NCBI GenBank assembly: GCA_046482545.1
Contig: JAWOEX010000035.1
Coordinates: 173,629-237,628 of the forward strand
Source: Candidatus Thorarchaeota archaeon
GTDB taxonomy: Archaea > Asgardarchaeota > Thorarchaeia > Thorarchaeales > Thorarchaeaceae
Reading direction: 5' to 3'
Length of the DNA: 64,000 bases
Part shown: positions 1,065 to 34,083 of the stretch, one piece after another
Numbering within the stretch: position 1 is the stretch's first letter
How the letters are laid out: every line of letters begins with the position of its first letter
The notes under the pieces: model-generated
What the model saw: the letters and a program-made list of their open reading frames with translations, nothing else
Told to the model about the DNA's origin: nothing
Database searches by the model: none
Program-made: the position numbers and the translations under genes

Positions 1065-1174
1065 TGGTGGGCCGGGTGAGATTTGAACTCACGATCCCCT
1101 GGACCCGAACCAGGAACCATAGCCAATCTAGCCCCGCCACAACAAGTGTGCTGGAGTAGCTAGACCACCGACCC
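1065..1174 (-). tRNA. tRNA-Pro(CGG) with 32-nt D-loop intron (~1126-1157)
   Basis: Acceptor GGGTCGG/CCGGCCC-A-CCA, anticodon arm CCTGG-TTCGGGT-CCAGG, T arm GTGAG-TTCAAAT-CTCAC. The D-loop insert forms a BHB-like motif. Confidence 0.9.
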
Positions 1175-33649: not shown

Positions 33650-33876
33650 TATTGAGGCTATATTCCAGTAACAGGGCCTCAGTTATATGACTTATGACTC
33701 ACTTATTTCCCACTTTACTGGTTCTGTGGAGAAAGCAGGCGGAATTGTTGTGAGAAGATGAAATGAGCTGTCAATTCGCTATTCAAACGCACGGATCCTG
33801 ACAATCAGGAACAATAATATGAATCACTCCGATATGTTGGTATGACTTTTTACACAGAGCCCACTTTACCACAATC

Positions 33877-33886
33877 TCTATAAATT
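33877..33886 (+). promoter_or_regulatory. Probable TATA box of tRNA-Lys
   Basis: CTATAAA about 30 nt upstream of the tRNA 5' end. Confidence 0.45.
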
Positions 33887-33910: not shown

Positions 33911-34083
33911 GGGCCAGTGGCTAAGCCAGGTATAGTGTCAGATTTCATCTGATGCACCTAGAGCGACAGGCTCTTATGCTGCGGGTATCCCGGTATCGGG
34001 TTCGCGGCAGAGACACTTGTTGGTCAGGGGTTCTTGGCTTTTGATTTCCAAAGGCCAGCCCAAAAATCCCCTCTGGCCCGCCA
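33911..34083 (+). tRNA. tRNA-Lys(CTT) with three introns (33934-33961, 33977-34014, 34034-34063)
   Basis: Acceptor GGGCCAG/CTGGCCC-G-CCA; removing three BHB-flanked inserts (28, 38 and 30 nt) gives a 77-nt cloverleaf. Confidence 0.88.

Follow-up and report, generated by a model that had tools for sequence, protein, structure and literature searches.

A tRNA-Lys(CUU) gene interrupted by three BHB introns occupies positions 33911-34083 on the plus strand of the window (the whole 64,000-nt stretch of Thorarchaeota DNA that was analysed). It overlaps no ORF; the spacer in which it lies is 570 nt long and is flanked by two minus-strand ORFs. Introns account for 96 of its 173 nt (28 + 38 + 30), the same share as counted in the initial annotation. 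Exon 1 (33911-33933, 23 nt; positions 1-22 including 17a) contains the acceptor 5' strand, U8 and G9, the D-stem 5' strand, the D-loop and U22, and has the same sequence in the intronless orthologue L011. Because base 17a is present, linear positions in this gene are one above the Sprinzl numbers. Exon 1 is followed by intron 1 (33934-33961, 28 nt), an HBh'-type insertion at 22/23 in the D-arm. Exon 2 (33962-33976, 15 nt; A23 to A37) supplies the D-stem 3' strand, G26, the anticodon stem 5' strand and the loop with its anticodon CUU (33973-33975), and ends at intron 2 (33977-34014, 38 nt), which is of full hBHBh' type and stands at the canonical 37/38 site. Exon 3 (34015-34033, 19 nt; A38 to C56) comprises the anticodon stem 3' strand, the variable loop, the T-stem 5' strand and U54, U55 and C56. 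The T-loop is then broken at 56/57 by intron 3 (34034-34063, 30 nt), again of HBh' type, before exon 4 (34064-34083, 20 nt; A57 to A76) adds the remaining T-loop, the T-stem 3' strand, the acceptor 3' strand (34073-34079), the discriminator G (34080) and the CCA (34081-34083). All of these features are on the plus strand. Removal of the introns at the BHB cut sites leaves a 77-nt cloverleaf with a genome-encoded CCA, called by ARAGORN over its full length as tRNA-Lys(ctt). The four exons are colinear and contiguous within the 173 nt, an arrangement that is neither split nor circularly permuted.

In an archaeal BHB each strand of the central helix is followed on its 3' side by a bulge of 3 nt, in which EndA cleaves after the second base (Marck and Grosjean 2003, as cited in PMC11291895). 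Application of this rule assigns the introns to Sprinzl 22/23, 37/38 and 56/57. These are the sites, and this is the isoacceptor, named in the initial annotation, and the BHB cuts, the junctions of L011 and the ARAGORN call all agree with them. The four-base strands and bulges that had been listed for each motif are likewise found exactly in the sequence. For intron 1 the central helix is AGGT (33928-33931) with ACCT (33956-33959), with bulges ATA and AGA, a 9-bp inner helix and an outer helix of a single base pair. For intron 2, which is GC-rich, it is CTCT (33971-33974) with AGAG (34009-34012), with bulges TAT and ACA and a 6-bp inner helix, and the anticodon stem serves as outer helix. For intron 3 it is GGGT (34028-34031) with GCCC (34058-34061), with bulges TCT and AAA and a 9-bp inner helix capped by an AUUUC pentaloop; this motif lacks an outer helix. 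Thus each of the three introns has four of four central pairs, bulges of 3 nt and an inner helix of 6 to 9 bp, as expected of a BHB.

The frequency of such motifs by chance was estimated by shuffling every intron 200,000 times against unchanged exons; a BHB was scored when four central and at least four inner pairs could form. A BHB arose at the true boundaries in 0.09 to 0.16% of shuffles per intron, which gives a joint value of about 1.6e-9. In addition, a SPLITS-like scan combined BHB candidates from the whole genome (3.05 Mb) with an anchor of a 7-bp acceptor, any base and CCA, a T-arm filter and ARAGORN. It re-found the locus blind, as the sole three-intron solution among about 17,000 anchors, under anchor rules (7-bp acceptor, N and CCA, with the T-loop filter) that left out Asp, Trp, Lys(UUU) and other tRNAs.

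Folding of the precursor is compatible with these motifs to differing degrees. The BHB of intron 1 is part of the minimum free energy structure in RNAfold, with pair probabilities of 0.6 to 0.9. A structure that contains all three BHBs together with the acceptor and anticodon stems has a free energy of -78.0 kcal/mol, compared with -80.6 kcal/mol for the minimum, a gap of 2.6 kcal/mol. For introns 2 and 3 the thermodynamic model assigns low probabilities to the H helices (0.05 and 0.2, respectively), because register-shifted or T-stem pairings compete with them. As the central helix of intron 3 competes with the T-stem, the latter could form only after cleavage.

The insertions do not resemble group I or group II introns, as they are 28 to 38 nt long and match no Rfam intron model at E ≤ 10. 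Three sub-threshold matches to miRNA or snoRNA families at E ≤ 10, in the 401-nt stretch searched, were taken as noise. Intron 1 contains CUGA and, judged by eye, no full C box; all three introns were considered too short for the excised products to act as C/D-box sRNAs.

Orthologues were collected by BLAST against 60 genomes of the same family and by an exact-word scan of a collection of species genomes, giving 40 distinct full-length tRNA-Lys(CUU) genes; the named records are all Thorarchaeota or Promethearchaeota MAGs, which leaves no doubt about the taxonomic assignment. Exons are nearly invariant across the 40. Two of the orthologues are intronless (L011, also found as L061, and L050), and L011 scores 67.5 bits on Rfam RF00005. 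The spliced product of the window gene and L011 agree at 70 of 74 bases and differ at four, which make up two compensatory T-stem pairs (49:65 and 50:64). Across the positions of introns 1 and 3, uninterrupted genes read GGTAT/AGCG and TTC/AAAT (the slash marks the junction), which confirms the BHB-derived cut sites without recourse to the motif.

These junctions bear on whether a functional gene might be spliced differently, for example with intron 1 cut elsewhere in the D-arm or with one insertion retained in the mature RNA. Introns 1 and 3 are both of the relaxed HBh' type, and a looser pass of the scan found four other intron choices at the locus whose products, with other anticodons, likewise passed ARAGORN. 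None of these four reproduces the orthologue sequence as the BHB-exact choice does, and the latter is therefore preferred. Furthermore, a D-arm junction two bases upstream (GGT/AGAGC) also yields a Lys tRNA valid to ARAGORN. However, it places A:G at 13:22 and conflicts with the intronless orthologues, whereas the BHB-exact cut is the only one to give a Watson-Crick 13:22 pair, and only the BHB-exact junctions match L011, L050 and L061. A different set of junctions or a different number of introns is therefore very improbable.

A survey of intron positions in Asgard genomes had been proposed in the initial annotation. Carried out here on the 40 Thorarchaeota Lys(CUU) genes, it revealed from zero to four introns per gene, distributed over about eight sites (21-22/23, 30/31, 37/38, 42-43/44, 53/54, 55-56/57, 58/59 and 59/60). 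Two distinct genes have no intron, 11 have one, 18 have two, seven have three and two have four. The combination of 22/23, 37/38 and 56/57 occurs outside the window gene only in L023, where the intron sequences are unrelated. Three introns are also present in L005, L047 and L026, at 30/31, 43/44 and 56/57, with none at the canonical site.

Intron 3 and its orthologues show strong covariation. Four of four central pairs are present in all 15 distinct 56/57 introns, and the same is true of all 18 distinct 30/31 introns. When the 15 distinct 56/57 introns are aligned, pairing holds in 95.9% of cells, compared with at most 48% when partners are slid by one to three columns, and in eight of the nine pairs of the inner helix both partners vary. 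Conservation is much stronger in the pentaloop (consensus AUUUC) and the bases that close it than in this covarying stem.

Several further observations were made on the intron set. The hairpin loops of window introns 1 (33943-33947) and 3 (34052-34056) read AUUUC or a close variant, and a similar loop is found in most 30/31, 43/44 and 56/57 introns of relatives. Introns at 30/31 (18 genes) and at 37/38 (18 genes) occur together in none of the 40 genes, in counts that ignore phylogeny, and either one combines freely with introns at 43/44 and 56/57. A possible structural reason for this exclusion is that both BHBs use C32-U33. All nine distinct 43/44 introns (carried by L002, L003, L005, L013, L026, L027, L036 and L042) have three of four central-helix pairs, the exception always being A:G, with A38 opposite G, at the outer end. 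This opposition is a consistent relaxed variant of the BHB.

Since introns 1 and 3 lack an outer helix, their removal needs an enzyme of broad specificity, and such breadth can be predicted for the EndA encoded in this genome. Two EndA paralogues are present. The first (187 aa; contig C34, L031:1219-1779) is an alpha subunit that matches Aeropyrum pernix alpha (3p1z_B, E 5e-52); it retains the Tyr, His and Lys catalytic residues and has an N-terminal segment that aligns with the L1/CSL (crenarchaeal-specific) loop. The second (199 aa; L032:1453-2049, minus strand) has both EndA domains, and alignment to the Methanopyrus kandleri enzyme reveals Ala in place of the catalytic His, which fits a putative structural beta subunit. 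The same (alpha-beta)2 architecture with L1 is found in Asgard archaea, and enzymes of this type cut relaxed motifs (Kaneta et al. 2018, PMC5829648). An RNA ligase, RtcB, is also encoded (603 bits). The genome therefore contains a predicted endonuclease for relaxed motifs as well as a ligase.

The gene is preceded by a predicted promoter on the plus strand (33869-33886), in which a BRE-like CCACAA leads into TCTATAAA. The TATA box (TATAAA, 33879-33884) is at -32 to -27 from the mature 5' end. Almost every Thorarchaeota orthologue, regardless of intron number, has the same BRE/TATA element at this distance and, given this conservation and what is known of archaeal promoters, 33869-33886 probably acts as the promoter of the gene.

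No second tRNA-Lys(CUU) gene was found in the genome to which the window belongs (G000), a 45-contig draft with an estimated completeness of 98.9%. tRNA-Lys(UUU) is encoded by a separate gene (C28:147326), whose acceptor stem differs from that of Lys(CUU) and whose T-loop contains one intron; an exact 3-4-3 BHB was not found by eye for that intron. AAG makes up 52% of the Lys codons in long ORFs. As Lys(UUU) might read AAG by wobble, the Lys(CUU) gene need not be essential.

It is very probable, from the features of its sequence and those of its relatives, that 33911-34083 is a functional, single-copy tRNA-Lys(CUU) gene of this Thorarchaeota (Asgard) archaeon, spliced by EndA and RtcB. The BRE/TATA promoter would drive a precursor of about 175 to 180 nt, which on folding would present a 3-4-3 BHB at each insertion, as hBHBh' at 37/38 and as relaxed HBh' at 22/23 and 56/57. 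A heterotetrameric (alpha-beta)2 EndA, whose L1/CSL loop would give it a broad substrate range, would then cleave after the second bulge base at all six sites, leaving four exons (23, 15, 19 and 20 nt) for RtcB to ligate into the 77-nt tRNA. After six cuts the exons would presumably be held together by pairing in the acceptor stem (7 bp), the anticodon stem (5 bp), the T-stem (5 bp) and the D-stem (3 bp). We infer transcription, cleavage and ligation in vivo, and likewise the order of intron removal.

A decaying pseudogene, in which a former tRNA-Lys(CUU) has been broken by insertions and is neither expressed nor spliced, would be in keeping with the blindness of standard finders to this locus and with the existence of Lys(UUU), which could in principle read AAG. 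However, the exons are the same as those of orthologues save for compensatory pairs, the promoter is conserved, another Lys(CUU) gene was not found in the genome, BHB geometry is exact at all three insertions, and orthologous introns covary. Loss of function is thus highly unlikely. Chance resemblance or a chimeric contig can be dismissed almost entirely: although the genome is a draft in 45 contigs, the same flanking genes are present in two genomes of the same genus, with a homologous intron 1 in both and intron 3 in one of them (G012), and the joint probability of chance is of the order of 1e-9.

The functional gene proposed here is invisible to the tRNA finders applied. ARAGORN found no tRNA-Lys anywhere in the genome with its intron option on or off, and Rfam RF00005 detected nothing at the locus, either at the gathering score or at E ≤ 10 with lax filters over the 401-nt stretch. 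The initial annotation had remarked that standard annotation often misses such genes, and for these two tools that holds. Both ARAGORN and the Rfam tRNA model thus overlook a core part of the translation apparatus in this Asgard archaeon, and automatic tRNA counts for such genomes can in consequence be too low.

Other tRNA genes in the same genome are affected. In the window, the 70-nt tRNA-Pro(cgg) called by ARAGORN at 1069-1138 is probably truncated, as the scan gives a 110-nt gene at 1065-1174 (minus strand) with a 78-nt product after removal of a 32-nt D-loop intron. tRNA-Pro(UGG) on contig C38 has the same layout. A further gene missed by both ARAGORN and Rfam is L035 (C38:36750-36900, minus strand). 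It has a T-loop intron of the 56/57 type with three of four central BHB pairs, and its hairpin tip, TTGATTTCCAAG, is as in window intron 3. The BLAST match to exon 3, intron 3 and exon 4 in this region (C38:36750-36823, 73%) was rejected as a Lys gene because the tRNA there is another one, which has a T-loop intron and a relaxed BHB of its own.

Triple-intron tRNAs were described in the initial annotation as known mostly from Thermoproteales, a view which is now dated since Asgard cases have been published. In three complete Asgard genomes, 92 to 95% of tRNA genes bear introns and more than half have several (Valentin-Alvarado et al. 2024, PMC11291895). Focal Asgard families average 2.2 intervening sequences per gene, with up to five, and 30% of these sequences, chiefly those in the D-arm, escape tRNAscan-SE (Goswami et al. 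2026, bioRxiv 10.64898/2026.10.13.758758). The window gene shares much with the multi-intron tRNAs of Atabeyarchaeia, Freyarchaeia and Jordiarchaeia: several short (about 20 to 40 nt) BHB introns per gene at canonical and non-canonical sites (including D-arm and T-arm), genes missed by standard software, an (alpha-beta)2 EndA and repeated gains and losses. Unlike those described in these papers, it is from Thorarchaeota, which is not a focal intron-rich family, although Thorarchaeota SMTZ1-83 has been surveyed for tRNA introns (Kaneta 2018, PMC5829648).

Thermoproteales are the classic group for BHB introns that are non-canonical or several to a gene. Up to three BHB introns per tRNA are reported there (Sugahara 2008 and Fujishima 2010, as cited in PMC11291895, PMC4090602 and bioRxiv 10.64898/2026.10.13.758758). 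The points in common with that system, so far as these citing papers describe it, are relaxed HBh'/hBH motifs, a heterotetrameric EndA that bears the CSL/L1 loop, and related introns that recur across tRNA genes. However, Thermoproteales belong to TACK rather than to the Asgard phylum, and introns are often reused from gene to gene there (28% at ≥ 80% identity; bioRxiv 10.64898/2026.10.13.758758), while such reuse appears rare in G000. As multi-intron tRNAs of Asgard archaea are already in the literature, the window gene is a clean yet ordinary example, which matters mainly for annotation and as material on intron gain and loss. It does add Thorarchaeota to the lineages in which three- and four-intron tRNAs are routine, and the distribution of introns in Lys(CUU) across the family provides a compact natural experiment on the gain and loss of protein-spliced introns near the eukaryotic stem.

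The most detailed record of such changes comes from two sister species of the same genus (G012 and G027). A flanking gene of G000 has about 84% nucleotide identity with its counterpart in each sister, compared with 91% between G012 and G027, and synteny of the locus is conserved across all three. Intron 1 is common to G000, G012 (26 of 28 bases) and G027, with changes that keep its pairs, and intron 3 is identical in G000 and G012 (30 of 30). In G000 the segment between introns 1 and 3 contains a single intron, the 38-nt canonical one. It resembles no other intron of the sample and has no other copy in G000 or in the 60 family genomes; its sole metagenome match was rejected as an unrelated 22-nt chance match. 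Indeed, second copies of introns 1, 2 and 3 were all sought within G000 and not found. The orthologues in G012 (L002) and G027 (L003) each have four introns (22/23, 30/31, 43/44 and one in the T-loop) and none at 37/38. The T-loop intron of G027 is unrelated to intron 3, its BHB fitting 59/60 and not 56/57. Introns at 30/31 and 43/44 are common among other genera, so G000 has most likely lost the two and acquired intron 2, unless its middle segment was replaced. Comparison of the three loci thus points to two precise losses with one gain, or to a single replacement between introns 1 and 3.

A close relative of intron 3 is found in another tRNA. The tRNA-Arg(UCU) genes of G012 (L073, C47:45748-45879) and G027 (L074, C43:35680-35812) have a 30-nt intron at 56/57 which is identical to window intron 3 at 29 of 30 bases. 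No T-loop intron is present in the Arg(UCU) gene of G000 (L075, C23:83625-83727, minus strand; miscalled tRNA-SeC(tca) by ARAGORN) or in nine Arg(UCU) orthologues from other genera. This suggests copying or conversion of an intron between Lys(CUU) and Arg(UCU) and, given how common the 56/57 intron is among Lys(CUU) genes, copying was likely from Lys to Arg. In focal Asgard archaea only 0.2% of introns are shared across isotypes at ≥ 90% identity (bioRxiv 10.64898/2026.10.13.758758). Intron 3 stands out against this background, as both sister species carry it almost unchanged in the gene for another isoacceptor. Very recent intron turnover, datable within one genus, together with directional transfer from Lys(CUU) to Arg(UCU), is put forward tentatively as a joint reading, with doubt slightly outweighing belief. 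If true, it would supply a concrete example of an intron transferred in a known direction from one isoacceptor family to another in Asgard archaea, a group for which the published census records almost no such cases.

In other Thorarchaeota, but not in G000, truncated second copies of the 5' part of tRNA-Lys(CUU), including the 30/31 intron, were identified (L030, L041, L042, L053, L055, L056 and L060). They lie 0.7 to 2.2 kb from the full gene, in either orientation, and may be attachment-site duplications of small integrated elements.
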